IMG/VR virus record: IMGVR_UViG_2737471822_000004
Coordinates: 1 to 21,415 of that record
Length of the DNA stretch: 21,415 nucleotides
Strand: one strand, 5' to 3'
From: a virus
Lineage: Duplodnaviria > Heunggongvirae > Uroviricota > Caudoviricetes
Numbering within the stretch: position 1 is the first letter of the stretch; each line of letters starts with the position of its first letter. The position numbers and the translations under genes are program-made. Positions 706-21,415 of this stretch are shown here, piece by piece. The notes beneath the pieces were generated by a model. That model was not told where the DNA came from. It searched no databases and worked only from the letters and a program-made list of their open reading frames with translations.

Positions 706-721
706 TATAAGATATCCAATA

Positions 722-1570
722 TTAGTCTAAATGTTGAATGTCTTTTAAGAAATCCATGGCGCGGATTCTTGATTGACCATTTATCAGGAAAATATAAGAT
801 GATAGTTCTCTTTCTGCAGTGTTATTTTTCATTATTTCGTTTTCATTTTTGCGTAACTTAGTTGACTCTATAGTTTTTATCAGACTATTAATTTTTTCAT
901 CAAAACCGATAGGTTTTTTTGTTAATGAAATCTTATTTTTTTCAATAGCGCGACGGATCTTTGCTAGAATTTTGTTGCGGATATTTTCAGGGACATTTTC
1001 TGAACTTGAGATAAAGTTATGATTGCCATTTTTTAATGCTTCATTAATTGCATCATAAGGAGATATATATAAATTACTAGGAGTATTATAGGCTGTTTTG
1101 GCGTCACCCAGTGTATTGTTCACAAAATCTGTGCTCTTAGAAATATAAACTACTCCAACTAGCCCCGAAAAATTCTCCCAGAAAACAGATTCAAGATTCT
1201 TGTTGTTTGCATTGACCGCTCTTTTGGAAATGGTCTTTTGTTTATTTAGTTCATTTAAAGTTTTTCTTAGTTCAGAATTTATTGAATTTAATTTTTCTTC
1301 TGATTCTTTGTATTGTAAATCAAGTTTGGCAATGCTTCCCTCCAATTCTTTTCGTAAGATTTTATTATTCTCTATAAATTTTTGGGAGTTTTCCATTGCT
1401 GTTTTTAATTTATTTAATTCAACTTCTTTTTTTGCAATTTCTTCTGATAAAAGTTCCTTTTGGTAAATTGGTCTTACTGTATAAAAATATCCAAAAATAG
1501 CAAATGCCACCAATACAAACTGTGATACATGGCTAACTCGGCTCAAAAAAACATCAACTTTATTTGACAT
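722..1570 (-). CDS. Hypothetical membrane-anchored coiled-coil protein, cargo gene A (282 aa)
   Basis: N-terminal TM helix (FVLVAFAIFGYFYTVRPIYQ) then a long coiled-coil-like segment. Start aligns with the paralog start. GAGG 5 nt upstream of ATG. 16-nt spacing to the downstream gene suggests an operon. Confidence 0.65.
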   Translation of the reverse strand: MSNKVDVFLSRVSHVSQFVLVAFAIFGYFYTVRPIYQKELLSEEIAKKEVELNKLKTAMENSQKFIENNKILRKELEGSIAKLDLQYKESEEKLNSINSELRKTLNELNKQKTISKRAVNANNKNLESVFWENFSGLVGVVYISKSTDFVNNTLGDAKTAYNTPSNLYISPYDAINEALKNGNHNFISSSENVPENIRNKILAKIRRAIEKNKISLTKKPIGFDEKINSLIKTIESTKLRKNENEIMKNNTAERELSSYIFLINGQSRIRAMDFLKDIQHLD

Positions 1571-1604
1571 AACGCCTCTATAAGATTCTCTTTTTATCTA
1601 CAAC

Positions 1605-1610
1605 ATTATA
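1605..1610 (-). promoter_or_regulatory. Possible -10 hexamer (TATAAT on minus strand) for the cargo operon
   Basis: Perfect TATAAT about 35 nt upstream of the 282-aa start codon. The region is AT-rich, so a chance match is plausible. Confidence 0.25.
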
Positions 1611-2004
1611 ATTTTTTAATGAAAAAAATCATCTAAAAATTAGTTCAAAGCAATACGTTCAAACTGATATTGATGCTTAGGAGCTAATCGGTACGTATTG
1701 ATGGTACAACAGAAAAGAACAATAGAAAGCTTGGGGGCTGACGTTGCTACTGGCGCACATACCCATGTCGTACTAAAAGAGTTCATTTGATTTTATAACT
1801 ATATCAGCCCGTTATTTTTATGTTGATGCGAACAGCCCCGCACGCCTGCCCGCTTCGCTTAACAGACTGGTTTTCATGCACCTCATAAATCGTCTCAGAA
1901 GCCACCACACGAGGGCTTTCTCGTCAAAAATGGTGCATAAGGTTCATGCGTTTTCATGCGCTATAGACATGCACTCATGCGCTCTCAGGCCAGCCAGGGA
2001 AAAG

Positions 2005-2034
2005 GTGTTAAAAATCCCGGTACTCGACCGGGAT
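2005..2034 (-). terminator. Rho-independent terminator after the sid-psu-delta operon
   Basis: Perfect 8-bp stem ATCCCGGT / ACCGGGAT (2014-2021 and 2027-2034) with a 5-nt loop. On the minus strand it is followed by UUUUAACACC. Lies about 20 nt downstream of the delta stop. Confidence 0.7.
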
Positions 2035-2054
2035 TACGTGGGCGTTTTTTCTAA

Positions 2055-2336
2055 TCAGACAGGAATCTGCTGACGGCTTGACAGTTTTGACGCGGAGCCA
2101 TAGCGATTGAGCGTTTGCTGTTGTTTTACCGGGGGTTGTGATTTGTCTGGTTCCTGTTCATTGCGCCGGGGTTTCATGATTATCTTATCCACACTCTCCA
2201 GTGCCGTAAATGTGCAGGAACATTCCAGATTCTGGCACTGATACCACGAGCGTTTAACTGACGGAGCTTCATAGGCTGCTGTTCTGGCGTGTGCAACTGT
2301 ACCGCATTCCGGACATTTAAGTGCCATTAAAATCAC
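2055..2336 (-). CDS. delta: Ogr/Delta-family zinc-finger late transcription activator (93 aa)
   Basis: Translation carries the CPECG...HART...YQCQN.ECS zinc-finger pattern typical of P2 Ogr / P4 Delta. Start overlaps the psu stop by 4 nt. Confidence 0.85.
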   Translation of the reverse strand: MILMALKCPECGTVAHARTAAYEAPSVKRSWYQCQNLECSCTFTALESVDKIIMKPRRNEQEPDKSQPPVKQQQTLNRYGSASKLSSRQQIPV

Positions 2337-2884
2337 TCCTGTATATCGTTAATGTCATTCAGGCGTTGCTGAAAATGCAGATGTTGTGCCGGGGTGTAAG
2401 AGTCCTGGCAATCACGAATCATCCCGGGGTCAGGTATCAAACCGGATTCATCCAGGATCTCACGATAATCCCCGGCAATTTCAGGCGGTGTTATTGCCAG
2501 CTGGCGAACCAGAGCACTGCGTAATATACGGGACGCAACGTCAACCCCTCCGCGTCCCTTCAGGAACGGAGCCAGTGCAGATGTCAGGGCTGCCCCATTC
2601 GCCTGCATAAAATTGCTGAGAGCTGCTTCTGTGCAGGCCTCCATCAGTAAATGCTGCGAGTAAATGCATTCGCGCGCAGCACAGTTAATTTGCCATTTCA
2701 GCACATCCAGACGTTCCCGCAGTAATTCGAGCTGTCGGGCATAATCTGCTGGTTTTTCTGTGGCAGCAAGGAGAGATGCTATCTGTTGTTCAACGGCTTT
2801 TCGGCTCTCACTATGTCCGGCCCACAGAATACGGGCATTCCGAAAACTGGTAAGTGCCTGGTCAGGCGTGCCTCGGGCCGTCAT
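2333..2884 (-). CDS. psu: Psu-like polarity suppression / capsid decoration protein (183 aa)
   Basis: Size, all-helical composition and recalled P4 Psu motifs (LKWQIN.AA, FMQ..G.AL..ALAP, YTPAQ). Sits inside the late operon, coupled to sid and delta by 4-nt overlaps. Confidence 0.7.
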   Translation of the reverse strand: MTARGTPDQALTSFRNARILWAGHSESRKAVEQQIASLLAATEKPADYARQLELLRERLDVLKWQINCAARECIYSQHLLMEACTEAALSNFMQANGAALTSALAPFLKGRGGVDVASRILRSALVRQLAITPPEIAGDYREILDESGLIPDPGMIRDCQDSYTPAQHLHFQQRLNDINDIQE

Positions 2885-3624
2885 ACTGCTTTCTCCTTCT
2901 CAGCAAGTTCCTGACGAACCTTAATTTTATGCATAGCTGCCGGAGAGAGTTGATTACTGAAATCCAGACGCGCCGCATAATCCGGGGCAATTCCCGCCAG
3001 TTTAAACACCGGGTCCTGTTCAGGCATCGCATCGTTAGCCAGAGCCGGTCTGGTGATATGTTTATGAATAAAGTCTTTCAGCACTGTGTCCGGGTCATTA
3101 ACTGAATTCACCACACCCACAACGGCACTGGCTTCCCGGCCCATTGTGGATTTAAGCAGGCTCAGCGTCTGAATAAGCGCTTTTCCATGCGACTGCATAA
3201 AATCTTCCCAGATTTGTTTTGCACGAATATCCACAAGAATATTATGCGCGTGGATATACTTTCCGGCTAATTCTGCAGCTTTCTGCGGCAAAAGTGCATT
3301 TTCGCTTTCCTGAGCCGCCAGCAGCTCATCAAAATCCTCAAGCGTTTCTCGTCCCAGCGCAATTTCCGTGCGCAGTTTTTTCATTTCCTTTGAGACCACG
3401 CCCTGACTTTCACGAAACAGCGTGCGCCACTCCTCATTCAGTGTGTTCGTCGTGGCTTCCATTTCAGCGCGACGCTGGCGGATTGTCGCAATATTATCCG
3501 CTGCCGCTTTCTGCTGACGACGTGCTTCAAGCCATGCGTTTCTGGCTGTGTTCATGGTTTCCAGTGCCCGCTGCGTTACAGCCGGAAAAGTGGAAAGGTT
3601 GTTATTCACTGCGGTGTTGTTCAT
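2881..3624 (-). CDS. sid: Sid-like external scaffold / capsid size determination protein (247 aa)
   Basis: First gene of the late operon, immediately downstream of tandem TGT-N12-ACA dyads. Size close to P4 Sid, helical Ala/Glu-rich sequence. AGGAG 6 nt upstream of ATG. Confidence 0.65.
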   Translation of the reverse strand: MNNTAVNNNLSTFPAVTQRALETMNTARNAWLEARRQQKAAADNIATIRQRRAEMEATTNTLNEEWRTLFRESQGVVSKEMKKLRTEIALGRETLEDFDELLAAQESENALLPQKAAELAGKYIHAHNILVDIRAKQIWEDFMQSHGKALIQTLSLLKSTMGREASAVVGVVNSVNDPDTVLKDFIHKHITRPALANDAMPEQDPVFKLAGIAPDYAARLDFSNQLSPAAMHKIKVRQELAEKEKAV

Positions 3625-3658
3625 GACTTCTCCTGTCGGGTTGGTTCGTTACGTCAAT

Positions 3659-3714
3659 TGTGTCGTGGCTGACACAAGCACACTATCGGTGATCAGTGTG
3701 TGGTGGCTGGCACA
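3659..3714 (-). promoter_or_regulatory. Late promoter region with two TGT-N12-ACA dyads (Ogr/Delta-type activator binding sites)
   Basis: TGTgtcgtggctgacACA at 3659-3676 and TGTgtggtggctggcACA at 3697-3714, centres 38 bp apart, about 45 and 80 nt upstream of the sid ATG. Confidence 0.6.
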
Positions 3715-3802
3715 ACGGGCGCTTGCGGTTATTCAGACGTGGCTATGAAAGCCAGCCAGATAAAAATGCCCTCTGTTTCAGTCTGCTTTATGTCCCTGAT
3801 GC

Positions 3803-3991
3803 GGTGGAACAGGTGAAACATGTGTTACTGCTTTGTTTTATAAAGTATTTATATACACTGCACCGGTGGAACATCGCGGGTAACAAGGTGGAACAGCGGA
3901 TTGGCTGGCGTTACATCTGTTCCACCTCACTATTTCAGAAGGTGAAACAGGTTCAGCCCTTGTAAAATACGGTTGTTCCACCTGTTTCACC
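3803..3991. repeat. Iteron cluster: 8 copies of 9-mer GGTG(G/A)AACA in both orientations, candidate alpha-binding origin/crr
   Basis: Copies at 3803, 3812, 3866, 3887, 3941 (forward) and 3919, 3974, 3983 (inverted, TGTT(C/T)CACC). Outer pairs form an 18-bp inverted repeat. Located between the alpha stop and the sid promoter. Confidence 0.7.
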
Positions 3992-4025
3992 TGTTACCCT
4001 TAATAAATAAGACTCACGCAAAGCC

Positions 4026-6698
4026 TTAACCCGGCACCTCGCTGTTGAAGACATAGAGCCTGCGGGGATTCATCTCTGGCGGGCGAATGGTTGTCTGGAG
4101 TTTGCCATCAGTGGAGGGCAGCAGGTATCCACGATCTGCGCACAGACGCGCCACCTTGCGCGGGTCAAATCCCCTGCAGATTTCTTTCCAGCCGGACGGC
4201 ATGACATAGAACGTAGTGACAGCTTCCGTGCCCTGCGCGGTACTGCCTTTCTCCACCCTTCGCCAGCCCACCATATTGCCGGGGCGGTTGCGCTCGTCAT
4301 ACCAGTCTGCAAAGCGGCTGTACTGATTCGCGGTAAAGAAACTGCGAACCTGCTCCAGTGCGGCGATATCTTCCTGATTGGCGGTGTGCCCGCGATCTTT
4401 CAGCCATGCGTTCAGGCAGACGCGGGTTGCCCGCAGTGCTTCACCCTCAGGCCAGCCGGTGATACCCAGACGGGTTGCCAGTTCACCTGCCATCGCCACC
4501 AGTGCAAAGCGGTTCACAGCCCGGCCCACTTGATTGCCTGCATCTTTCGGAGTCAGGGCGGCAGCATATTCCTTCATCAGCGATTTTGCCTGTGCCGTTA
4601 GTCCGTTAAGATCAGCGGTCAGTGCTTTCAGCCACTCCCGGAACGGCGAACCGTAGTAGCAGGACGTGGCCCATTCAAGATGCTCTGCCAGAGCCTTGCC
4701 GCTGTCGAAGCCGTGCAGCTCCTCAAAAACGCCAAACTTCCCGGAATCGCTGGGGATCTGGATCATCCTGACTTCCATCCCGGCAAAAGTACGCTCACCG
4801 GCCTTTGCCGCATGTTCGGTCAGAGACAACTCGCCAGTTGAAAAGAACAACAGGCGCCACTGCTTACGGGTACGCAGCTCACCGTCCGTACCGGCACGGC
4901 CCTTGCCTTGACCGTTTGCCAGCATGTAGGCGATATTGCCTGCCTCGCGTCCGTCAACTTCCCGGATCTCATCAAGCATCATGGCGGCATCGTTGCGGCG
5001 GCTGGCGCATCCCTCCAGCGCGTTGCCGGTGGCCCGCCATGTCTGCCAGTAGTCAGGCCCGCCGCAGACGGAGGTTGCTGCTTTCATGGTGGTGGTCTTA
5101 CCGTCTGTCGATTCCCCTTTGAGGTGGTAGCCGCCGCCGTCCATACCAACCAGCCGTAACAGTGGTGCAGCAAAGGCCAGGCTGACAGCAAATGCCACGC
5201 GGGAGTTGCCGGTACAGTAGCGGGATACATGCTCCCGCCATTCCTCTGTTGTGCCCGACACGCGGAAATCACGCCCCTGCACGGAAGTGGTCTGGAGAAT
5301 GACACCCTCTGCACCTTCACCGCTGACCTCATCCTGCAGGACGTAAACCTGACCATGCCAGCCAGTACGACTGACGCAGGTCACGCGGCGTTCCGGTTTA
5401 CACAGTGAGATATATTCCATCAGGCGTGCGCGTGCCTCACCGGTGGTGCTGATATAAGACAGCCCGTTAACCAGCAGTACCCGGCGCAGTTCCTCACCAC
5501 TGCCGCTCAGCATTTCCATCGGCATCGCCCAGCGGCGACACTCACCCCACGTATCTTCCCATTCCAGCAGTCGTCCGAAGTTACCGCCATCGGCATCGCA
5601 GGTGATTGCCGTCACGCGCAGCGGGCTGCATATTTTGACGTTCTGGATCTCCGTCTCACCGTTGCGCTGTACCTGCTTTTCATACCAGAGATATTCCTGG
5701 GTAAGACGGAACCCGTGCGGCAGTTGCGTGCGGCTTTCCCCGCACAGTACCAGACCGTTGCGAAAGGCTTCACGGGCACGGGTAATACCGTGCTCCCGAT
5801 GAAAGTCATTCCAGTCAGCCTTAATCTCTCCTGGTGGCAGCGTCATCCAGCCGCCAACAGCTTTTGCCGCCCGTTCAGCAAAGGCTCTGCCGGGATTCTC
5901 ACCCCCGTCCTGAAAATCGTTATCACCGGCGATGATAATTTTTACCTCAGGCCAGCGTGCCCGCAGCGACTGCGCCACATTGGGCAGGTTGCCCGCAGAT
6001 ATGGCAGCCACTACGCATCCGGCAGTGAGCTGGCTTACCGTCAGCGCCGTAGCGTAACCTTCGGTAATCACCACCTGTATCGGTGGTTCAGACGGTAACG
6101 GGCTGAGCGACACAAACGCGCCTTTCATCGTGCTGCCGGGCAGTATGCTTTTTTCACCCGTCGGGGCGATAAGCTGTGCACCGGTCACGGCTCCGGTGTT
6201 GGTCGTGAGTGGTAACAGCAGGGAACCGGCAGGAAAATCCTTACCGCTGATATGCTGTACGCTTCCGGTCAGAGAGGCCGGGTATCCGGCGAACCCTTTT
6301 CCTGTCAGATAGGCGCTTTCTCCCGTGTGGCTCTCTTTCATCAGCGCCGCCACGGTAAGACCCATGTCGCGTTTAGGGGCTTTTTGTCTGGCAGGCTTAA
6401 CAGGCAGTTCCTGCATATCCGGCACATTAAGCACCTGCGCCACCTCCTGCGCAGCCTTTCTGACGCTGTAACCGGTTACGAGCTTAACCAGATCCAGACC
6501 GTCACCATTGCCACACTGGCTGCAGATCCACGTCCCGCGCCCGTCAAGGTCATCAAGGCGAAAACGATCCTTGCCCCCACATTTCGGGCAGGGACCGTGC
6601 CTGCCGTTTTCAGGTACATCAATACGCAGCATCTGCAGAATAACGGGCCATTTCCCCCGTGCGGCGGCTGAAACCTGCGTAACCGTCTGTATTGTCAT
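4026..6698 (-). CDS. alpha: Alpha-type primase-helicase (890 aa)
   Basis: N-terminal zinc-binding CPKCGG...CSQCG, TOPRIM-like EGYATAL / AGDND acidic motifs, C-terminal Walker A GESTDGKTT. Start overlaps the upstream ORF stop (ATGA). Confidence 0.9.
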   Translation of the reverse strand: MTIQTVTQVSAAARGKWPVILQMLRIDVPENGRHGPCPKCGGKDRFRLDDLDGRGTWICSQCGNGDGLDLVKLVTGYSVRKAAQEVAQVLNVPDMQELPVKPARQKAPKRDMGLTVAALMKESHTGESAYLTGKGFAGYPASLTGSVQHISGKDFPAGSLLLPLTTNTGAVTGAQLIAPTGEKSILPGSTMKGAFVSLSPLPSEPPIQVVITEGYATALTVSQLTAGCVVAAISAGNLPNVAQSLRARWPEVKIIIAGDNDFQDGGENPGRAFAERAAKAVGGWMTLPPGEIKADWNDFHREHGITRAREAFRNGLVLCGESRTQLPHGFRLTQEYLWYEKQVQRNGETEIQNVKICSPLRVTAITCDADGGNFGRLLEWEDTWGECRRWAMPMEMLSGSGEELRRVLLVNGLSYISTTGEARARLMEYISLCKPERRVTCVSRTGWHGQVYVLQDEVSGEGAEGVILQTTSVQGRDFRVSGTTEEWREHVSRYCTGNSRVAFAVSLAFAAPLLRLVGMDGGGYHLKGESTDGKTTTMKAATSVCGGPDYWQTWRATGNALEGCASRRNDAAMMLDEIREVDGREAGNIAYMLANGQGKGRAGTDGELRTRKQWRLLFFSTGELSLTEHAAKAGERTFAGMEVRMIQIPSDSGKFGVFEELHGFDSGKALAEHLEWATSCYYGSPFREWLKALTADLNGLTAQAKSLMKEYAAALTPKDAGNQVGRAVNRFALVAMAGELATRLGITGWPEGEALRATRVCLNAWLKDRGHTANQEDIAALEQVRSFFTANQYSRFADWYDERNRPGNMVGWRRVEKGSTAQGTEAVTTFYVMPSGWKEICRGFDPRKVARLCADRGYLLPSTDGKLQTTIRPPEMNPRRLYVFNSEVPG

Positions 6699-7078
6699 AC
6701 TTCCCCCTCATACAACGTCACACCGGTACTGCAGAAGTCATCAAAGGCCGCCGGAAGCGTGCGGTACATCTCCGCCATCACTTCACAGCCGCGCGCGGTC
6801 AGTACCGGCGGCGCGGTCAGCAGTGACGGCTCCAGCATGTCAGTCAGCAGTGCCAGCGCGGCAGCGGCGCCCTGCACTTCGCCGTACTCGTTAATCAGTA
6901 CGCACTCGATATGCAGCGCAATGGCCATTTCAATACGCTCCACTGTCAGGCTGTGCGGACCATACTGATCACTGCCAGTTTCGTTCAGCATTTTCTGCCG
7001 CCATGCTGAAGCAATAGCCCGCCGGTAAAGCGCGGTGGTCATTTCTACCGGGAAAATGGAAACCTGCGGCTGGTTCAT
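6695..7078 (-). CDS. Hypothetical protein (127 aa), immediately upstream of alpha
   Basis: ORF with ATGA stop/start overlaps on both sides. Position is analogous to the small genes preceding alpha in P4 (orf151/epsilon region). No motif recognised. Confidence 0.55.
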   Translation of the reverse strand: MNQPQVSIFPVEMTTALYRRAIASAWRQKMLNETGSDQYGPHSLTVERIEMAIALHIECVLINEYGEVQGAAAALALLTDMLEPSLLTAPPVLTARGCEVMAEMYRTLPAAFDDFCSTGVTLYEGEV

Positions 7079-7359
7079 CTGGCACCTCCTTCAATCAGTG
7101 CGCAGCTGTGTGCAATATCCGTCAAATCTGCCAGCAGGTACTCCATCAGCGCGGCGACACCAGGCGCACAGCCTGCGTCCAGTGCTCCGGCCTGAGACGG
7201 GTATTCAGAAAAGAGAAGCTGGAGCATGTCGCAGGCATTTCTTGCGCGGGTCAGCTTTCCGAAACTGTCCTCTGACAACCCATAGGCAAAAGCACCGGTA
7301 TTGTGTTTTTCAGGCAAAGTGTGGCCCTGAGCACCGTTGAGCCCGTTTGAAATATTCAT
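7075..7359 (-). CDS. Hypothetical protein (94 aa)
   Basis: GGAG 10 nt upstream of ATG. Stop overlaps the next start. Epsilon-like by position and size only. Confidence 0.5.
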   Translation of the reverse strand: MNISNGLNGAQGHTLPEKHNTGAFAYGLSEDSFGKLTRARNACDMLQLLFSEYPSQAGALDAGCAPGVAALMEYLLADLTDIAHSCALIEGGAR

Positions 7360-7390
7360 CGTGAATTACTCCGTTTTCAGCGGTATTTTG

Positions 7391-7750
7391 TCAGAGAAAC
7401 TTTGAATAGTGACCGTCGTCAGGCTCAGCAGAACGCCGTATGGTACGCTCCCGCCAGCGGATAAATAGCACAGACGGATGCAGTGTCAGCGGGCCGGAAC
7501 CACTACTGCCTGCAGGAGCTGGTGCAGGCTTAAAGAGCGGTACATCAAACAGGCGCGTATACCGCTGTTCAAACCATGCCAGAGGGCAGGAAGAAAGCTG
7601 GTTGTCGCTGTCATGACGTATCAGCACTTCACAGCTGAATTCAGGATTAACCAGCGCCACAGAGGGCGAGGCTTCTATTAATCGGATAATCGTGACCGTC
7701 CAGCCACGTTCATGCTGCCAGCGTTCGCCGGGGTGCGGATAATTACGCAT
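7391..7750 (-). CDS. Hypothetical protein (119 aa from the RBS-supported ATG; the ORF extends to 7780)
   Basis: GGAGGTG 5 nt upstream of the ATG at 7750. Overlaps the end of the upstream small ORF by 8 nt. Confidence 0.5.
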   Translation of the reverse strand: MRNYPHPGERWQHERGWTVTIIRLIEASPSVALVNPEFSCEVLIRHDSDNQLSSCPLAWFEQRYTRLFDVPLFKPAPAPAGSSGSGPLTLHPSVLFIRWRERTIRRSAEPDDGHYSKFL

Positions 7751-7919
7751 GTTCACCTCCGCAGGGAATGCGCCCGGCAAAGCTCAGTACATAGTCCGGG
7801 GCAAGTCTGCGCCGCGCTGATCGTTCGTTATCTGCGGTGATCCTTAACATCACAGGACGGGCATTGCGTTGACTGCGGTTGATCGCCGCAAATAACCAGG
7901 TACACTTCTGTTTAGCCAT
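7743..7919 (-). CDS. Hypothetical small protein (58 aa), first gene of the replication operon
   Basis: GAGGT 8 nt upstream of the ATG at 7919. The longer 76-aa ORF lacks an RBS at its first ATG. Confidence 0.4.
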   Translation of the reverse strand: MAKQKCTWLFAAINRSQRNARPVMLRITADNERSARRRLAPDYVLSFAGRIPCGGEHA

Positions 7920-8003
7920 CTTCGTTACCTCATATAACGTGCTGGTCAGACGCCTCGGTGCTGCTGCAAACACTCCGGGGCGTTGCTATTTTGTTTTTCT
8001 GTG

Positions 8004-8047
8004 TGTAATGTGTCATTACACATAAATACATTACAATGGGTGTAATT
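8004..8047. promoter_or_regulatory. Divergent promoter/operator region with GTAATG-type palindromes
   Basis: TGTAATG-tgt-CATTACA perfect palindrome at 8004-8020, further CATTACA (8029-8035) and TGTAATT (8041-8047) half-sites overlapping the start of the plus-strand regulator gene. Confidence 0.45.
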
Positions 8048-8230
8048 GACGTGTCAACACACAAAAATGAAAGACGTGGGAATCCGCCATTCCAGTTCCG
8101 ACTTGACCCTGAACTGCGTGAACTGATGGAACAAGCACAACAGCAGGATGGCGATGAATCGCTAGCGGCTTGGATCAAGCGCATTCTACGCAAAGAGTTA
8201 CAAAGCCGAGGTTTAGAACCAAAGAATTGA
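8036..8230 (+). CDS. Small ribbon-helix-helix-like transcriptional regulator (64 aa), the only plus-strand gene in the satellite
   Basis: PFQFRLDPELRELMEQ... fits the beta-strand then helix pattern of Arc/CopG/ParD-type RHH proteins. Divergent from the replication operon. No clear SD at the first ATG; the GTG at 8051 is an alternative start. Confidence 0.5.
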   Translation: MGVIDVSTHKNERRGNPPFQFRLDPELRELMEQAQQQDGDESLAAWIKRILRKELQSRGLEPKN

Positions 8231-8240
8231 TTAATACGTT

Positions 8241-8263
8241 GGGGAGGCTTTTTTCTCCCCAGC
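8241..8263. terminator. Hairpin between the converging RHH gene and alpA (possible bidirectional terminator)
   Basis: GGGGAG / CTCCCC stem with a T-rich loop. No strong U-tract on either side, so function is uncertain. Confidence 0.3.
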
Positions 8264-8279
8264 TTTGTTAATATTGTCA

Positions 8280-8495
8280 TTACACTACTTCCTCCAATCC
8301 TGCTGATTGAGCTTTAACCCACTGCCTAATTTCTTGTGCATCGTAAACAGATACCCGTTTTGAAATGCGTATAGATTTGGGAAATTCAGGATTGTTCTTT
8401 TCCCAGCGCCAGAGAGTAACCGTACTTATTTGCAAAAAGTCAGCAGTAGCTCGTGGGCGGGCATGTCCAGTGATAGGATAAGTTTTTAATGTCAT
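8280..8495 (-). CDS. alpA: AlpA-family HTH regulator (71 aa)
   Basis: FLQISTVTLWRWEKNNPEFPKSIRISKRVSVYDAQEIRQWV matches the AlpA/Xis-type winged-helix pattern. Typical position between the integrase and the primase operon. Confidence 0.8.
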   Translation of the reverse strand: MTLKTYPITGHARPRATADFLQISTVTLWRWEKNNPEFPKSIRISKRVSVYDAQEIRQWVKAQSAGLEEVV

Positions 8496-8503
8496 GAAAT
8501 TAC

Positions 8504-8531
8504 CTGCCGTATTATGTAATGAACACGGCAG
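8504..8531 (-). promoter_or_regulatory. Stem-loop in the alpA 5' leader
   Basis: 7-bp stem CTGCCGT / ACGGCAG with a 14-nt loop that contains a GTAATG motif, ending 8 nt upstream of the alpA ATG. Confidence 0.3.
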
Positions 8532-8773
8532 ATACTATGGGGATATCAAAATGCTGTGAAGGTAGTGTAATCAACTCTACCTGTAGATTGTTTCAGTCTA
8601 CCCCTTTTGTTTTAATCCCGCATGATTAACCGCTAATCGTAATTTTCTTAAGATTTCTTGTTCATTAGTGATAAATATTGGAGGTAGCTCTCCTAAATGT
8701 TTAATTATGGCGTTAGTCCACTTTTCAGGACTTATCTCTTTTCTTTCACCACGACATTCGCTTGGGTATTTTG

Positions 8774-9481
8774 CTAATATATATATATGGCTGCATTTAA
8801 TAACCCCTCCCTATTTTTTGCATGATGCTCAGCAGTGTTATTTAATCGCTTGGGGATTTTAGGTTCAGATGAAATTCTTTTCGTAAGTAAACTTGGCATA
8901 GGAATTCCAGTTTTTACTGATTTCCATATTAACTCTAAATCTCTTCGCATGATAAGAAGATCTTCAAATGGAATCTCAATGACCTTATTTCCTTCATATG
9001 AGGCCGTTGCCATCAAAACATTATCTCGTATTTTTACCGGTTTAAGCCTGAATTCATAATCTGGATCTATAGCTAATCCATTTTTTATGTCACTTATCAT
9101 ATCATCGGCGTACCAAATACCACAGGCAAATCCTATAATTTGAAGCCCATTTTCAAAATGTTCAAAGGAATCATCTTTAAGGTCATACCATATTGTTGAA
9201 AATTCCATCTCTAGTGATTGATTAGTTAATACGGGATGAATTAAGTCAATTTCCATTTTCTGATTTTTATTGAGGAAATTAACATTAAATCTAACTGCAA
9301 GTCCATCCGCCTTGAATGCGATATTAAAAGCGCCTATTTCGTATAGATGTAATAAATCATCAATCTCGCATTCTAATAGTCTTGAAGCGCGTTCAAATGA
9401 ACAATATTCTAATGGTGGTATTTTTTTGTCAATCCATAGATTTCCTAAGAATATAGTTTCATTCTCTGTTGAATGCTGCAT
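8774..9481 (-). CDS. Hypothetical protein (235 aa), AT-rich cargo gene between integrase and alpA
   Basis: Long ORF with GAGG 7 nt upstream of ATG, 30 nt downstream of the integrase stop. Lower GC than neighbours. No motif recognised. Confidence 0.6.
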   Translation of the reverse strand: MQHSTENETIFLGNLWIDKKIPPLEYCSFERASRLLECEIDDLLHLYEIGAFNIAFKADGLAVRFNVNFLNKNQKMEIDLIHPVLTNQSLEMEFSTIWYDLKDDSFEHFENGLQIIGFACGIWYADDMISDIKNGLAIDPDYEFRLKPVKIRDNVLMATASYEGNKVIEIPFEDLLIMRRDLELIWKSVKTGIPMPSLLTKRISSEPKIPKRLNNTAEHHAKNREGLLNAAIYIY

Positions 9482-9511
9482 TATGACCTCTGTTTTAAAT
9501 TATAAGAGTAT

Positions 9512-10846
9512 TTAATTGATAATGTTAATACCTGATAAGTCATAAGGAGCATGGAATTCGTCCTTATTTAGTTCCAGATAATTAGACCACCATTGCATCA
9601 TTCTGCGGCGTTCCTGCATGTGCTGCGCAAGATGCACATATGCTGCCCGCACTTCGTTTCTTTCTTGGTGACTCATCTGCCGTTCAACTGCATCGCGTGA
9701 CCAGAGTCCTGATTCGGTCAGTGCAGAGCAGGCCATCGCCCTGAACCCATGCAAGCAAACATCAGTTTGAGTGTCGTAACCCATCGTTCGCAGTGCTTTA
9801 TTAACTGTGTTTTCGCTCATCGGTTTATATGGGTTGCTGTCACCGGGAAAAACCAGCAGATATTCACCACTGATTTTCCTTATATCCTCCAGTACCCCGA
9901 TAGCCTGACTAGATAGCGGGACATAATGAGCAGCCCCCATCTTTGCACCCCGATCTGAGAATTTAACCCCTGCGATCTCTTCACGTTGTCCTGGTATCGT
10001 CCATAGCCCATTTTCAATGTCGATCTCCTCCCATCTGGCATGTCGTAGTTCGCTGGATCGCACAAAAGTGTGCAGGGAAAAGAGAACTGCTAGGCGAGTC
10101 AATGGTCTTCCCGTGTAACTTCTCGTTTTCGCTAACAGTTCAGGTAAACGTTCGAGAGGTAGTGCGGGGCGATGTCGTACTTTGGGGGCCGTAATTGCAC
10201 CTTTTAGATCGTGGGCAGGGTTGTAATCGACAATTCCACGTTGCACGGCATAACGGAAGATGCTCGTCATAGTGGTTTTTACACGGCTCGTTGTGGCACC
10301 AATTCCTTTCTCAGTCATCTCAACCAGCATCGGCATCAAGTCACGGGTTTTGAGCGTATCGATAGGCTTTGAACCGATGGCAGGAAAGAGGTGGTTTTCC
10401 ATTTCTCGGAGAATTTTTTTACGGGTGATCTCTTTCCACTCAGGATGCCCCATCGTTCCACTATGCCACTCTCTGGCAACACTCTCGAACGTGGGGGAAA
10501 TTGGGTCTTCCTTTTTGGGTTTCTTTGCTTCGCGAGGATCACGACCATCGGCTAGTAGTTGCCTGGCTTCATCACGCCGTTTCCGCGCTGTTGCAAGTGA
10601 GACATCTGGGTAGACCCCTAATGCTAATGTCACTTGTTTTCCATCAAAACGATAATTCATACGCCAGTATTTTCCACCAGTCTTTCGTACCAGTAGATAC
10701 AAACTCCCTCCATCGGTAAGTTTGTAATCATTGGTCTTCGGCTTGGCGTTTTCTATCTGTTTGGGGGAAAGCACATTAATGGCCATATCTGTACTCATTT
10801 TGGTAAATTGATGGTATCTGCATATCGAACTGGGGAATACCATCAC
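9512..10846 (-). CDS. Tyrosine recombinase, P4-family integrase (int1); probable true start at 10786 or 10798
   Basis: N-terminal arm-binding domain (KLTDGGSLYLLVRKTGGKYWRMNYRF...VTLALGVYPDVSLATARKRRDEAR) and C-terminal catalytic region (HGFRA...RAAYVH...RRRMMQWW). The canonical N-terminus begins at MAINVLSPK. Confidence 0.9.
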   Translation of the reverse strand: MMVFPSSICRYHQFTKMSTDMAINVLSPKQIENAKPKTNDYKLTDGGSLYLLVRKTGGKYWRMNYRFDGKQVTLALGVYPDVSLATARKRRDEARQLLADGRDPREAKKPKKEDPISPTFESVAREWHSGTMGHPEWKEITRKKILREMENHLFPAIGSKPIDTLKTRDLMPMLVEMTEKGIGATTSRVKTTMTSIFRYAVQRGIVDYNPAHDLKGAITAPKVRHRPALPLERLPELLAKTRSYTGRPLTRLAVLFSLHTFVRSSELRHARWEEIDIENGLWTIPGQREEIAGVKFSDRGAKMGAAHYVPLSSQAIGVLEDIRKISGEYLLVFPGDSNPYKPMSENTVNKALRTMGYDTQTDVCLHGFRAMACSALTESGLWSRDAVERQMSHQERNEVRAAYVHLAQHMQERRRMMQWWSNYLELNKDEFHAPYDLSGINIIN

Positions 10847-11057
10847 TTATACCATCACGAGGTTGTAATGTCATGAAATTAACTGAAATGAAAATCAGGC
10901 CGATTCGGTGATAACTTACTGTTTTTTTAAGTGGTTATGTAATGAAGTGAAATGTAGAGAAAGGTCTTTAAAGTGTCCCTGCAGACATCTACTTGAGGCG
11001 GCAGGGGGTTGATTAGAATGGTGTTTTTTAGATTTGAGAAATATTTTACCCGCTATT
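10847..11057. other. Inter-element junction: candidate att site region, duplicated alpA start segment, and direct repeats
   Basis: Contains a second copy of the 16-mer TAATGTCATGAAATTA that overlaps the alpA start codon (10866-10881 versus 8487-8502), a tRNA 3'-end-like GTGTCCCTGCAG (10963-10974), and a TATTTTACCC direct repeat at 11042-11063. Confidence 0.35.
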
Positions 11058-11258
11058 TTACCCATTCGCGCGGCTTAAGAGCTTATTTTTGAATTCACAA
11101 TGGTCACGATATAACCATCTTGCTCGTCCGTGGATAACTTTGGCTTTAGGCAGGTCGCCGGACTTAATCCGGTCATAGATGAAGGTTTTACCAAAGCCAG
11201 TATCAGCCATGATGAATTTCAAATCAACCAGTGAATCAGGTTGTAGTTCGTGTTGCAT
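11058..11258 (-). CDS. torI: TorI-like excisionase / recombination directionality factor (66 aa, AlpA/Xis-type winged helix)
   Basis: 66-aa protein MQHELQPDSLVDLKFIMADTGFGKTFIYDRIKSGDLPKAKVIHGRARW... with an HTH_17-like pattern. I recall this as the E. coli KplE1 TorI sequence. GGAGA upstream of ATG. Lies at the prophage end opposite the IntS-like integrase. Confidence 0.65.
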   Translation of the reverse strand: MQHELQPDSLVDLKFIMADTGFGKTFIYDRIKSGDLPKAKVIHGRARWLYRDHCEFKNKLLSRANG

Positions 11259-11300
11259 GAGTGCTATCTCCGAATAGGGAATCGAACCTGCAAATCAGGC

Positions 11301-11323
11301 AATAAAAAACCGCATTGATGCGG
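11301..11323 (-). terminator. Rho-independent terminator at the end of the early operon
   Basis: Minus-strand hairpin CCGCA-ucaa-UGCGG followed by UUUUUUAUU, between the 114-aa gene and the torI-like gene. Confidence 0.6.
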
Positions 11324-11382
11324 CAATGGTAGGTCTGGATATCTTGAGAAATGAACGGGCCTCATCGAGTGTGAGGCTGTGG

Positions 11383-11727
11383 TTAGTCCTTGCGTAACTC
11401 GCTAATTCTTCTGTAAGTCTCTGGTGCTTTGTTTCCGTGTATCTTCATTTCAGACTTCAACAGAGCAACGAGAGAATCCCATTCGTTGAGGATGCCTTTG
11501 AATGCCGGAACGCGCTTTGCAACCTTGTCGAATGAATCCCTGATTTCTGGAATCTGCTCGACAAGCGCAACGCATCGCCGGAAGTCGGCTACGTCATGTG
11601 GAGCGCCGAAGTGATGACCATAGATATTCTTTTTCAGTCCACATGCGATTGAGGCAAGAGTTGCGCTACTGATGCCAACATCGCCAGTCGATTGCCATTT
11701 CAAAACCTTCATAGCCAAATCTGACAT
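11383..11727 (-). CDS. Hypothetical prophage protein (114 aa)
   Basis: ORF co-oriented with the early operon. No motif recognised. Confidence 0.5.
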   Translation of the reverse strand: MSDLAMKVLKWQSTGDVGISSATLASIACGLKKNIYGHHFGAPHDVADFRRCVALVEQIPEIRDSFDKVAKRVPAFKGILNEWDSLVALLKSEMKIHGNKAPETYRRISELRKD

Positions 11728-11799
11728 TTCTTGTCTCCATAAAACAAAACTCGCCGTAGCGAGTTCAGATAAAAGAAATCCCCGCGAGTGCGAGGATTG

Positions 11800-12084
11800 T
11801 TATTCATTGCCGATATTCACCTTTATCGCGAACACCTTTACCGGTTTATCGCCGAAGTGCGGATGTGTGATTGTCTTGATTTCATATCCGTCATACGGGA
11901 CGTCAATTCTGCGGCTGGAATCGTCGCGCTTCGGATATCCCTTTGTGATAATCAGGCGGTCATGCTTACGGTTAACGAGGCGCTTTTTCCAGTAGTCATT
12001 ACACAAGCGATACTCTTCCGTTTTCTCCCCGCGAATCATGGCATCGAAGTATTCACCTTTGACGGCAAGTTGCAGGTTAGCCAT
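11800..12084 (-). CDS. ASCH/DUF3850-like small protein (94 aa from the ATG at 12084)
   Basis: MANLQLAVKGEYFDAMIRGEKTEEYR resembles the N-terminal pattern of ASCH/DUF3850 proteins. GGAGGTG 7 nt upstream. TAATG stop/start overlap with the upstream gene. Confidence 0.55.
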   Translation of the reverse strand: MANLQLAVKGEYFDAMIRGEKTEEYRLCNDYWKKRLVNRKHDRLIITKGYPKRDDSSRRIDVPYDGYEIKTITHPHFGDKPVKVFAIKVNIGNE

Positions 12085-15513: not shown

Positions 15514-15598
15514 CTTTCTCCTGTTCTTTGTGCTGATTGAGCATTTTGTTCATCTGACGAATGAATTCTTCGTCTGACCAGTTATCCGTAAAACTCAT
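15491..15598 (-). CDS. Possible small ORF (35 aa, acidic C-terminus)
   Basis: Below the ORF-track cutoff. Its ATG overlaps the stop of the upstream 56-aa ORF (ATGA) and its 3' end overlaps the 103-aa start. Supported only by coupling geometry. Confidence 0.25.
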   Translation of the reverse strand: MSFTDNWSDEEFIRQMNKMLNQHKEQEKDDDSDSE

Positions 15599-15765
15599 GG
15601 ACGGCCTTGTTGTTTCAAAATATCCCAAAGCTTTTCGAGCAAACTTTTCATTCTTGGTTGTTTAAAGTCTGCTCCGGTTAAAATATTTTTTCGTGAATGC
15701 TGTACCGATAAAATCGGGTTGAAAGGGCGAACCGATGCCGCCCCTGCAATAGCGAACTGTTGCAT
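15595..15765 (-). CDS. Possible small protein (56 aa), leader gene of the early operon
   Basis: AAGGAG 6 nt upstream of the ATG at 15765. The longer 91-aa frame has no RBS at its first ATG. Confidence 0.3.
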   Translation of the reverse strand: MQQFAIAGAASVRPFNPILSVQHSRKNILTGADFKQPRMKSLLEKLWDILKQQGRP

Positions 15766-15825
15766 AGGATGCTCCTTCTGTTTGATTGCATAACGAAAAC
15801 GCCTCGAGTGAAGCGTTATTGGTAT

Positions 15826-15855
15826 GCATATAAAAAGGCCCTCACACTGGAGGGC
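15826..15855 (-). terminator. Rho-independent terminator downstream of the 108/141-aa gene
   Basis: Minus-strand hairpin GCCCTC-cagugu-GAGGGC followed by CUUUUUAUAU. Confidence 0.6.
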
Positions 15856-15961
15856 AAAGAAGACTTCCAATAATCAGAACAAGTCGGCTCCTGTTTAGTT
15901 ACGAGCGACATTGCTCCGTGTATTCACTCGTTGGAATGAATACACAGTGCTTATTCGCAGC

Positions 15962-16288
15962 CTACATAATCATTCCGGTTATTATTACCATTTCAATATC
16001 ACTATCTTTCATAATGATTGGAGTTGAGTTATCAACTTTACTTTTACTCCATTTTCCTGCATCAGTTTTTAACGCTCCACAATAAGAAAGCCAATCATCA
16101 TCACAATGTTCTGGAACACTAATTCTGACAAGAACACGTGATAGTGCTTTTTCGATACTTTCATCACAATTAGCATTTGTGTAATTGCCGTGAGACAATT
16201 TCAAATCGTTAACTTCATCTTCATTGGCATCAAAAATATAGATTTCAGTCGACTCTGGAACATTTTCATAAACCATTAAAACTTTCAT
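15962..16288 (-). CDS. Hypothetical protein (108 aa from the ATG at 16288; the ORF is open to 16387)
   Basis: GGGG 5 nt upstream of the internal ATG (MKVLMVYEN...). Own terminator downstream. AT-rich. Confidence 0.45.
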   Translation of the reverse strand: MKVLMVYENVPESTEIYIFDANEDEVNDLKLSHGNYTNANCDESIEKALSRVLVRISVPEHCDDDWLSYCGALKTDAGKWSKSKVDNSTPIIMKDSDIEMVIITGMIM

Positions 16289-16392
16289 TTTTACCCCATA
16301 TTGTTTATGCCAAAAATAAAGGCCACCATCAGGCAGCCTTTTTGTAAATGTTGCAGGTATCAAGTAAGTAATTAGATGGAGCGCCATAAATT

Positions 16393-18099
16393 ATGAATTC
16401 ATCGTTTGTCGGGTCCATCTCCATCTCTTGGCCTATTGCCATTCTTGCGTCAGTGTCATCAGAGGCGAAGCATAAAACAGCCCCCGTCACCATCCCAGGA
16501 GACATCATTATCGATGCTTCTACTGGAGAATTTACCTTCAATGGCATTGATTATATTTTCCATCCGCTTGGCGCAAAATCAGTAGAGATTATCGGCGGTA
16601 AGTTCACCGCAAATGCATACCACACCCAGCGTCCTCAGGTAATTTTCAATGATTACCCTGATGGGCTGGAGAATTTACCAACGCGCGTGGTGATAAAAGA
16701 TATGCAATGCTTTAACTGCGGTGTTGGCTACATCATGGTTAACTGCCAGGACCCAACAAGCATCCACGTTACGGTTGATAACAACTACTGTAAGACTGAT
16801 GACAACACTGACCAGTATATCTCTGATGCGGGTATGTCAGGTGGGCAGGGTGAGGTATACCCATATCTGATGATTCTTGGTAATACGACAGAATCCGTCG
16901 ATATTGGAACGCCTCGCAAGTCAATGTTCCATGTGACCAATAATACCTTTGATGTTTTTATGCAGAGTGGTCCTAATGCAGATTTGGGTAAAGTTGGTGG
17001 TACTACGATAGGCGGCAATGTTAACGGCAATCTTTTCTGCAACAGGAATACGGAATGTGCATGCGAATTTGACACTTTTACTGGTGGTCTTGAAGTATCT
17101 TTAACATCAAACCGTTTTGTTAACACTGCCATTAAAATGATGTCAATGCAATTTGATAGCAGCACTCGCGTCGGATTAGGTGGTAGATCTTCAATATCGA
17201 ATAACGTATTTCATTTTGAAGAAAATCCGTTAAATGACTTTGCAATATTCTTACGGACATCACTTGTTAGCATATCTAATAATGTTTTTTATTACAAAGG
17301 TGCGAGCATTCCATCAGATCAGAGGATATTTAACTTTATAGCATCACAGGCGCTCAACAATAGTAACAATGGTTTCAACGGAACATGGTGCGCAGGTATT
17401 AGTATCACCGGTAACACAATGCAAATGGTGTTAGACCCTGCCGTAAACACGTCTCTAAGATTGCAATGTATTAACCCGACTGATATGTCAGGAGCGGTTA
17501 TATCGGGTAATTTTATGGCGGGCGGAGTAGGAATGGTGCTTAACGCCAGACCAGAAAGAAACAGAAACGTATGGACAGGTAACTTCATTACGTCAGGGTT
17601 ATTTACGGCAGAAGATATCTGGCGAATGAACTCAGCTTTTGTAGGTTCAGGGAACTACATCGGCAATGGTTATGATAATACGGTTAATGGCATAGCAATG
17701 TTGAGCAAGACTATACCCGCGGTATCAGATGGTTCAAAGATAAGAATTACTCTTGACCAGCAGATATTAACCGGGGCTGCATCTGACCGCTCACTTTACC
17801 TTCTCCACATAAAAGTAACCGGTGGGGTAAAAAACAACTACGCTACATATATCATGTCTTCTGGTGCGCATGACGCAACAGCAAGAGCCGACGCAACTGA
17901 CCTTAAACCCCCTATTGACCAGCGTTTAAACCCAGGAGATACTTCCATTGCAAACCTGCAAAGTTGCTTTAAAGCCGGATACAATGGAAGTGGGTATATT
18001 GTGCTTGAGGCCCTTTCAACATTCAGCGCGGCAAATCAGCCACCAACAAAAATTGAATATGCAATAGTACCATTATCAACAAACTTCCCAACGCTGTAA
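16393..18099 (+). CDS. Parallel beta-helix protein, probable phage tailspike / receptor-binding depolymerase (568 aa)
   Basis: Repetitive Gly/Asn/Thr-rich sequence with recurring ISNNVF / ITGN / ISGNF motifs typical of right-handed beta-helix tailspikes. Adjacent to an O-antigen acyltransferase. No recognisable P22-type head-binding N-terminus. Confidence 0.55.
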   Translation: MNSSFVGSISISWPIAILASVSSEAKHKTAPVTIPGDIIIDASTGEFTFNGIDYIFHPLGAKSVEIIGGKFTANAYHTQRPQVIFNDYPDGLENLPTRVVIKDMQCFNCGVGYIMVNCQDPTSIHVTVDNNYCKTDDNTDQYISDAGMSGGQGEVYPYLMILGNTTESVDIGTPRKSMFHVTNNTFDVFMQSGPNADLGKVGGTTIGGNVNGNLFCNRNTECACEFDTFTGGLEVSLTSNRFVNTAIKMMSMQFDSSTRVGLGGRSSISNNVFHFEENPLNDFAIFLRTSLVSISNNVFYYKGASIPSDQRIFNFIASQALNNSNNGFNGTWCAGISITGNTMQMVLDPAVNTSLRLQCINPTDMSGAVISGNFMAGGVGMVLNARPERNRNVWTGNFITSGLFTAEDIWRMNSAFVGSGNYIGNGYDNTVNGIAMLSKTIPAVSDGSKIRITLDQQILTGAASDRSLYLLHIKVTGGVKNNYATYIMSSGAHDATARADATDLKPPIDQRLNPGDTSIANLQSCFKAGYNGSGYIVLEALSTFSAANQPPTKIEYAIVPLSTNFPTL

Positions 18100-20257: not shown

Positions 20258-21415
20258 TCACTCTGGCTTTTCATCAAGCCAGTCCGCCCACCATTGCATC
20301 ATTTCTCTGCGCTTATCGAGATACTGAGCATGGTTGTAAATTCCACGTACAGATCCGCCGTTGGCATGTGCCAGTTGCACTTCAATGGCGTCGGCAGGCC
20401 ATTCGTGCTCGTTCATAATCGTGCTGAATTCATGCCTGAATCCGTGACCGCTTTCCAGACCCTCATAGCCGATTTGTTTGATCACAAGCAGTACCGCGTT
20501 CTCGCAGATTGGCTTCTTCTTATCGTTGCGCCCGGCAAAAACAAACTCTGATACTGGTTTGGTGATTGAGCTTAGCGTAGTGAGAAGTTCAACCACCTGG
20601 TCTGACATCGGGACCACATGAATTTTGCGTCCCTTCATCACACTGGCGTCGATGGTGATAATCCTGTTTTCAAAATCTACGTTCTTCCATTGCATGGAAC
20701 GAAGCTCTTTCGTTCTTAGGGCTGTGTAGCGTAAAACTTTGGTCGCAATGAGCGATACGATACTTCCTGAAAATGTTGCAAGTGCTTTGTTGAATGCCGT
20801 GATCTGGTCGGCAGGTAAAAACGGGAAGTTCTTCTTGCGGTATCCCTTCATGGCGTCAGCAAGGTCAGGTGCCGGGTTATATTTAGCCCTACCAGTAACA
20901 ATAGCGTAGCGGAAAACCTCGCCGCATCTTCTGCGGGCTTTGTTGGCTCGCTCCATTGCACCGCGATCTTCAAATCTGCGGATTACTTCCAGCAGTTGCA
21001 TCGGCTCAATATCCTGAATTTCAAGGCCGCCGATGATGGGTAAAATGTCGTCATCAAACATTTTGGCAAGTTCAGTTGCATAGCCTACTGACCAGACTTG
21101 CTTCTTGTGCTCGTACCATTCCTTGTAAATCGCACTAAAGGAATTGTTGTTAGACGAAGCCTTTTTCGCCTTTACCGGATCGATGCCAACCGAGATGTCT
21201 TTCCTCGCAGTCCATGCCTTATCCCTTGCCTCCTGCAAAGTCATTAGCGGATATTTTCCTACGGTCAGGATTTTCTCCTTACCGTCAATCTTGTAGCGAA
21301 GCTGCCATACCTTTTTCCCGGATACAGGGACATAAAGGTACAGGCCATTACCATCGAGAAGGCGGTATGGTTTTTCTTTCGGCTTTGCTGCTTCAATCTG
21401 CTTAACGGTGAGCAT
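20258..21415 (-). CDS. intS: IntS-like tyrosine integrase (385 aa); ATG sits exactly at the window edge
   Basis: MLTVKQIEAAKPKEKPYRLLDGNGLYLYVPVSGKKVWQLRYK... N-terminus and C-terminal HGFRHEF...GIYNHAQYLDKRREMMQWW catalytic region. Recalled as near-identical to E. coli K-12 IntS (CPS-53/KplE1). Upstream region and att are outside the window. Confidence 0.85.
   Translation of the reverse strand: MLTVKQIEAAKPKEKPYRLLDGNGLYLYVPVSGKKVWQLRYKIDGKEKILTVGKYPLMTLQEARDKAWTARKDISVGIDPVKAKKASSNNNSFSAIYKEWYEHKKQVWSVGYATELAKMFDDDILPIIGGLEIQDIEPMQLLEVIRRFEDRGAMERANKARRRCGEVFRYAIVTGRAKYNPAPDLADAMKGYRKKNFPFLPADQITAFNKALATFSGSIVSLIATKVLRYTALRTKELRSMQWKNVDFENRIITIDASVMKGRKIHVVPMSDQVVELLTTLSSITKPVSEFVFAGRNDKKKPICENAVLLVIKQIGYEGLESGHGFRHEFSTIMNEHEWPADAIEVQLAHANGGSVRGIYNHAQYLDKRREMMQWWADWLDEKPE

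Follow-up and report, generated by a model that had tools for sequence, protein, structure and literature searches.

The interval at positions 10847-11057 of the 21,415-nt stretch of viral DNA analysed here (the window) is almost certainly a hybrid attR/attL site at the tRNA gene argW, where a defective KplE1-like prophage meets a P4-like satellite as the outcome of two site-specific integrations. The seam is real and precisely delimited, and it is an ordinary case of a known and well-understood kind of junction that changes no concept. Leftward of the core, window 1-10984 is P4-like satellite; rightward, 10985-11081 and then torI are of KplE1 type. Read on the minus strand, which is the sense of the tRNA, the components would follow one another as torI, a KplE1/CPS-53-type attR arm, the 12-nt argW core CTGCAGGGACAC, the satellite attL arm and satellite int, and the genes flanking the interval, which encode a 66-aa protein (11058-11258), a 424-aa integrase (9512-10786) and a 71-aa AlpA-family protein (8280-8495), all lie on that strand. 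The origin of both halves, the exact breakpoints, the occurrence of each element alone, the empty site and the conservation of the arm elements are established, and argW itself and the distal att site, which would lie outside the window, are placed from relatives. An earlier sequence-only reading had proposed a composite attR/attL site created by tandem integration at one tRNA locus, with argW as first candidate, and comparison bears this out, each element being found alone at argW with homology that ends exactly at the 12-nt core. Either order of integration would yield this same sequence.

The core (10973..10984, minus strand) comprises tRNA-Arg(CCU) nucleotides 61-73 minus one G and forms the crossover segment common to both elements. 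Its plus-strand form, GTGTCCCTGCAG, occurs a single time in the window (0 expected in shuffles) and is the reverse complement of K-12 argW nucleotides 61-73 (CTGCAGGGGACAC) with one G absent, in keeping with the earlier recognition of an argW-like tRNA 3' end at this place. It is a remnant only, as ARAGORN finds 0 tRNA genes in the window, where just these 12 nt of a tRNA 3' end are present, and Rfam has no match in either the window or the interval. The published KplE1 core, CTGCAGGGGACACCAT, is 16 nt long (PMC2951348). That canonical form is not present, one G being absent and CAT replaced by TTT of the satellite arm, as expected of a hybrid site: as IntS would see it, the last 3 nt (CAT) of the 16-nt core and the bacterial side have been replaced by satellite DNA, and as the satellite Int would see it, the upstream part (TCGATTC) of a 21-22 nt identity block is absent.

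The breakpoints emerge from comparison with 5426 complete Escherichia coli genomes, searched first with window 9400-11800. Many records match only 9400-10984, at 99-99.9% identity, their integrase then being followed directly by tRNA-Arg, and a whole-window search gives strains PD4 and MB64 as matches over 1-10984 and no further. The order in PD4 is dsdC - satellite - int - tRNA-Arg(CCT) - yfdC, and over 1-10984 the window departs from PD4 only in two substitutions, in the (AT)n tract near 8777, which is longer by one AT, and in the core, which lacks one C. Genomes with the IntS/TorI element only match the junction query from 10973 onward, so that the homologies of the two kinds of single-element strain meet over the core. 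The reconstructed empty attB (dsdC - argW - yfdC) was found at 100% identity, with at least 80% coverage in 912 of the 5426 genomes, and the same hybrid junction as in the window occurs in ten of them. In G749 (ST131) another satellite is joined to torI in the same way, and E41 carries a full annotated array (yfdC - argW - intS - gtr genes - P22-like prophage - torI - satellite int - ... - dsd genes). An alignment of the window, four genomes with the same hybrid, the ST131 genome with its different satellite, two prophage-only attR sites, and the attL and attR of the PD4 satellite shows GTGTCCC(C)TGCAG at all sites, with flanks that diverge exactly as expected for BOP', POB' and POP'; the K-12 attR flank and that of the PD4 satellite attR are the same bacterial DNA.

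On the prophage side the earlier proposal stands in part: two elements do lie in tandem at one tRNA gene, but the prophage is a defective remnant of ~10.6 kb from intS to torI, similar in size to KplE1, and not a full phage. It contains intS, an AT3/SGNH acyltransferase (O-acetyltransferase-like), a 5'-truncated tailspike, cIII, RecT, Gp157, an Ea22/DUF551 protein, small ORFs and torI, the early-left genes running up to torI, and immunity, replication, lysis and head genes are absent between intS and torI. Phage matches of this part are mosaic and cover at most 40% of it. The tailspike (16393-18099, plus strand; also 15595-16387) lacks ~150 N-terminal profile positions, those of the head-binding domain, and directly adjoins the cIII region, a contact that is the scar of a deletion that removed morphogenesis, lysis, replication and immunity genes. 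The remnant is P22-like/lambdoid and defective, which does not imply a helper-satellite relation, and no P2-like helper is found in the window.

The recombination genes of the remnant are nearly those of E. coli K-12. The integrase gene intS (20258..21415, minus strand; 385 aa, recognized by Pfam) encodes a protein identical to K-12 IntS at 382 of 385 residues (99%), and the window ends exactly at its start codon; argW would lie next to it, beyond the right window edge, a position taken from K-12 and E41. The last gene of the remnant, torI (11058..11258, minus strand), specifies the recombination directionality factor (RDF) of the KplE1/CPS-53-type module, assigned to a PHROG excisionase family and identical to K-12 TorI over all 66 residues. 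Between core and torI lies the attR arm, or P arm (10985..11081, minus strand), of which 91 of 97 positions (94%) are identical to the K-12 attR arm, the K-12 region compared being that from the KplE1 core to the torI stop. The arm includes the torI stop codon (11058-11060) and falls within the 135-bp attR substrate used for excision in vitro, whose limits follow from its primers, the phage-side one mapping to window 11064-11083 (PMC3509656).

A direct repeat that had been noticed over the torI stop is real: TATTTTACCC (plus strand) occurs twice, at 11042-11051 and 11054-11063, against 0.02 expected, and the second copy spans the stop. On the minus strand the two direct copies, GGGTAAAATA, occupy 11042..11063 with a period of 12 and are nearly unchanged over the eight KplE1-type attR arms of the alignment, where one base differs in one arm. 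The motif GGGTAAAA, the reverse complement of the repeat as first noted, also recurs in the K-12 attL upstream of intS, and the IntS P' arm-type sites mapped in the KplE1 attL have a TAAA motif in common (PMC2951348). Given this recurrence where IntS sites have been mapped, we infer that the two copies are candidate IntS arm-type sites of the P arm. The likeness to the K-12 KplE1 attR extends to torI as last gene, an arm with both GGGTAAAATA repeats, the argW-derived core, intS at the other end, and a defective element of ~10 kb. The window differs in that the bacterial (dsdC-side) half of the site is replaced by the satellite attL arm, in a core without one G and the terminal CAT, and in its cargo, the AT3/SGNH acyltransferase and truncated tailspike standing in place of yfdGHI and the rest. 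The IntS/TorI recombination module of KplE1/CPS-53 is common to HK620, Sf6 and CUS-3.

Nothing in the phage collection matches the satellite half, whose genes are those of a P4-like element. The integrase gene (9512..10786, minus strand) encodes a P4-family enzyme with Pfam Arm-DNA-bind_3, Phage_int_M and Phage_integrase domains, 52% identical to P4 Int, and other Pfam matches of the satellite are to AlpA, a Zn_Ribbon_Prim/Toprim_3/DUF927 primase, Psu (twice) and Ogr_Delta, so that the P4-like core set of int, alpA, primase alpha, psu/sid and delta is present. Downstream of ogr/psu, window 1-1570 carries ORFs of 234 and 282 aa at the position of the P4 defence hotspot, neither of which has a Pfam, PHROG or PADLOC match; the equivalent place in G749 holds sce7725/sce7726-family genes. 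An (AT)n tract at 8776-8790 has one AT unit more than in PD4, which turns a 293-aa hypothetical ORF of PD4 into a 235-aa frame (8774-9481) and could reflect slippage mutation, phase variation or assembly error.

The satellite attL arm, or P' arm, from core to int start (10787..10972, minus strand) is 100% identical to the satellite-only attL of PD4 and conserved in eight integrase relatives (78-87% identity; from Buttiauxella, Rahnella, Pantoea, Scandinavium, Citrobacter and others), each of which directly adjoins a tRNA-Arg(CCT) gene. The int ATG follows the core at a distance of 187 nt, and transcription of int leads away from the core. Between the two lie the Int arm-type repeats (10810..10858, minus strand): GTGATGGTAT stands in direct orientation at 10849-10858 and again at 10837-10846, and a third copy, inverted and reading GATGGTAT on the plus strand, occupies 10810-10817. 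The other arm in PD4 has TACCATCA twice. Aligned over the eight relatives and the window, TTCATGACA and GTTCGATAT in this arm are invariant, and so are the arm repeats except in one relative, L017 (3920-3985), where all three change together from GATGGTAT to GCGGGTAT. This relative has the most divergent integrase (78% identity), and the concerted change looks like co-evolution of the arm sites with the Int N-terminal domain.

A promoter for int can be predicted within the same arm. The hexamers ATGACA (10874 to 10869) and TATAAG (10846..10851, minus strand, read from 10851 to 10846), separated by a 17-nt spacer, match the sigma-70 consensus at 10 of 12 positions, the -10 falling at the junction of the two direct arm repeats, although a promoter scan requiring T at the last -10 position does not list this pair. 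Equivalent -10 hexamers in the relatives read TATAAG, TATAAA, TATATT, TATCGT and TATCTT, and the corresponding place in P4, on the annotated arm repeats, reads TTGAAA-18-CATAAT. In P4, Pint is repressed by Int and Vis (PMC7286903), and in KplE1 overlapping sites in attL allow IntS and TorI to repress PintS (PMC2951348); by analogy with both, the satellite Int would repress its own promoter via the overlapping arm sites. The window resembles P4 in its P4-family integrase, a core from a tRNA 3' end, the attP layout (two direct and one inverted arm repeat between core and int, with two further repeats on the opposite side of the core), a promoter-like -10 where the direct repeats adjoin, and core genes for a primase (Toprim/DUF927), two Psu-like proteins, Ogr/Delta, an AlpA-type regulator and DUF5375. 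It differs in its target (argW here, leuX in P4), in its arm repeat (GATGGTAT here, TTGGGGGCAT in P4), in an AlpA barely similar to P4 Vis, and in that the P4 int arm has no copy of the vis start.

Each element might still be mobile. IntS and TorI (with IHF) would recombine the hybrid site with an argW-proximal attL ~160 bp past the right edge and release the ~10.6 kb remnant, and the satellite Int (with AlpA) would recombine it with a distal attR ~620 bp past the left edge and release a satellite of ~11.6 kb; this left distal site, on the dsdC side, would be expected as an argW 3'-end remnant, TCGATTCCTGCAGGG(G)ACACCAT. An alternative that grants the same origin is that the seam is now an inert fossil and remnant and satellite a single fixed island, which we consider possible but on balance doubtful. 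It draws on a core with three C/G where argW and the ten other hybrid junctions examined have four, on a prophage already heavily deleted, and on the AT insertion that, compared with PD4, frameshifts a satellite ORF and hints at decay; the cause would be the one-base core deletion together with the loss of flanking core-type half-sites, blocking one or both integrases. Against it, IntS, TorI and the attR arm are almost identical to those of K-12 KplE1, which is defective yet still excises (PMC2951348), and the three-base allele is common at distal argW remnants elsewhere, among them the attR of the PD4 satellite, so that a three-G hybrid could match a three-G distal site for satellite excision. 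The same allele is seen at the distal site of the tandem strain Z1322HEC0003 and in attR remnants of other genomes, which indicates that it circulates naturally, and NCTC11023 has four. Lying outside a functional tRNA gene, the core remnant is free to vary, and the missing G may also be a homopolymer error in the assembly of the window.

The effect of integration on the tRNA gene itself can be followed in PD4, where the satellite stands alone. There the tRNA 3' end, on the window's plus strand, reads GTGTCCCCTGCAGGAATCGAACC; the gene ends in ...GGGGACAC and then TTT (4570-4590 of comparison locus L001, corresponding to window 10965-10984), so that its CCA end is not encoded, and PGAP annotates this tRNA-Arg with 72 nt instead of 75. 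The CCA is also replaced in relatives L015 and L018, other relatives retain ACACCA, and an IntS element inserted upstream restores an encoded CCA.

The satellite arm holds one further feature, a second copy of the segment around the alpA start, which the earlier reading had reported and which we confirm: TAATGTCATGAAATTA[C/A]CTG occurs exactly twice in the window, at 8487-8506 and 10866-10885 (0 expected in shuffles), and alpA has its start codon in the first copy, as CAT at 8493-8495. Over 26 nt the two copies share 23 identities (8481-8506 against 10860-10885; local score 37, shuffle maximum 29), and we refer to this segment as box A (second copy 10860..10885, minus strand). A second, collinear block beyond those first listed, TTATGTAATGAA, matches 12/12 between 8512-8523 and 10935-10946; it is termed box B (TTCATTACATAA at 10935..10946, minus strand), an exact copy of a segment of the alpA leader. 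Together, alpA (8280-8495, Pfam Phage_AlpA) and its leader (8280..8531, minus strand) thus contain a first box A and a first box B, with a promoter-like TTCACA-17-TAGTAT upstream (8560 to 8532). The leader also has a hairpin, CTGCCGT...ACGGCAG (8505-8531, minus strand), that encloses box B and whose stem is kept by paired changes in two relatives (CTGCCATGTT/AACATGGCAG in L012 and CTGCTGTGTT/AACACAGCAG in L018), which suggests that the stretch from the alpA promoter to its start codon forms a conserved structure, as RNA or as DNA.

In the int arm, box A contains the -35 hexamer of the int promoter proposed above, and our preferred reading, a prediction from the sigma-70 consensus and the geometry of P4, is that it serves as the -35 region of a putatively autoregulated int promoter. 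Box A also opens a 32-codon frame, as had been pointed out (minus strand, 10874 to 10776, reading MTLQPRDGISDGIPQFDMQIPSIYQNEYRYGH up to its stop and overlapping the int start at 10786). Considered as a gene, this frame (10776..10874) was rejected, for although it is open over at least 25 codons in all nine sequences, the variable columns are distributed 6/9/10 over the codon positions with no third-position bias, and its frame relative to int is inconsistent among the nine; it is probably not coding.

Boxes A and B could alternatively be shared operators of a satellite regulator, either AlpA, as an RDF/regulator like P4 Vis, or the adjacent Arc-like repressor. We rate this as unlikely but worth stating, as the alpA leader and the int arm share two collinear matches, CATTACA occurs eight times in the window, seven of them within 8004-10938 where ~0.4 are expected, a perfect palindrome, TGTGTAATG-ACA-CATTACACA, stands beside the Arc-like gene, the relative with the same alpA type (L015) has the same palindrome and a four-copy enrichment, and P4 Vis represses Pint (PMC7286903). 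Opposed to it are the retention of the int-arm copy in relatives without the palindrome and with a different alpA start, the absence of box B from the int arm of Evo1/AH21 though their alpA leader retains it, and P4 itself, in which no analogous duplication was found. Among relatives with the other alpA type no operator palindromes with an arm length of at least 7 were found, and when co-variation of box A was examined in three E. coli variants and the eight relatives, conservation of the int-arm copy proved independent of alpA type, with one co-varying position only, between the window and L015. The Arc-like (RHH) gene itself (8036-8230, plus strand) is preceded at 8004-8035 by a strong promoter-like TTGACA-16-TGTAAT and then the palindrome, probably the satellite early promoter and its operator.

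In its fullest form, this idea would have one satellite regulator, AlpA or the Arc-like protein (8036-8230), act on boxes A and B and on CATTACA half-sites and so control alpA, the int promoter and attL jointly, with coupling through torI read-through added, a scheme to which we give a low probability. No terminator-like site is present from the torI stop to the satellite int start (10786-11058, minus strand), so torI transcription could read through the hybrid site into satellite int. Were the scheme true, such read-through in a tandem array would couple induction of the remnant to recombination of the satellite.

Far less probable still is the origin suggested at the outset for the second box A, which would make the segment at 10866-10885 the stump of an alpA-like gene cut in its first codons by the recombination that joined the elements. 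The 23/26 identity including ATG ACA TTA and the collinear 12/12 block upstream speak for it, but the copy lies 88 nt inside the satellite arm, away from the breakpoint, is unchanged where the satellite is alone at argW, and loses its similarity after codon 3; moreover, the eight relatives, all of other genera, keep its core TTCATGACA without change, even where alpA starts ATGATTAC..., and we have therefore discarded the idea of a recombination scar. In six relatives alpA starts ATGATTAC... or ATGGTTAC..., so the int-arm box is independent of the alpA sequence, and the 5' end of alpA in the window appears to be homologous throughout to that of the other alpA type (MTLKTYP and MITQIYP; GGCAGGTAATTTC and GGCAGGTGAAACCT), which argues against its being a fusion product. 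The 23/26 and 12/12 matches could stem from short-patch conversion or from a shared protein-binding site. That the whole interval is a chance resemblance to a tRNA end accompanied by chance repeats, with no att site, has only the shortness of the core (12 nt) in its favour and is virtually discounted by the 0 occurrences expected in shuffles and by comparative breakpoints that meet the core to the base.

Several elements in a row at one att site are a well-documented situation in E. coli: O157:H7 clade 8 is reported to have tandem integrations at five sites, leuX with its two integrative elements among them (PMC9997748), and P4-like satellites, too, have been described next to other mobile elements or in tandem with them (PMC8628076). 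The junction has in common with other E. coli tandem arrays a single tRNA-derived core used by two elements and a hybrid att site where these meet; the present case differs in combining a KplE1-type remnant with a P4-like satellite, and thereby two integrases and overlapping cores (a 16-nt core and a 21-22 nt identity block). For the opposite arrangement (argW, satellite, then IntS element), a chimeric junction query gave 0 of the 5426 genomes at a coverage of at least 80%, and its nearest partial matches were set aside as belonging to another island, of yee/Ag43 type, located between argW and an IntS phage. One such island, with yeeU, DUF987, RadC-like, antirestriction and Ag43-type genes, lies between argW and the IntS prophage of E. 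coli S1-NGR-02-A (L093, 3400-4200), and argW arrays therefore exist with other partners and in another order.

The boundary between two mobile elements is hereby fixed to the base, and the window is to be read as two separate elements rather than one island. For the argW-targeting lineage of P4-like satellites across the Enterobacterales, annotation gains candidate integrase-binding repeats and a likely int promoter. The junction is also a further example of the crowding at argW, an integration hotspot that is empty in only 912 of 5426 complete E. coli genomes.
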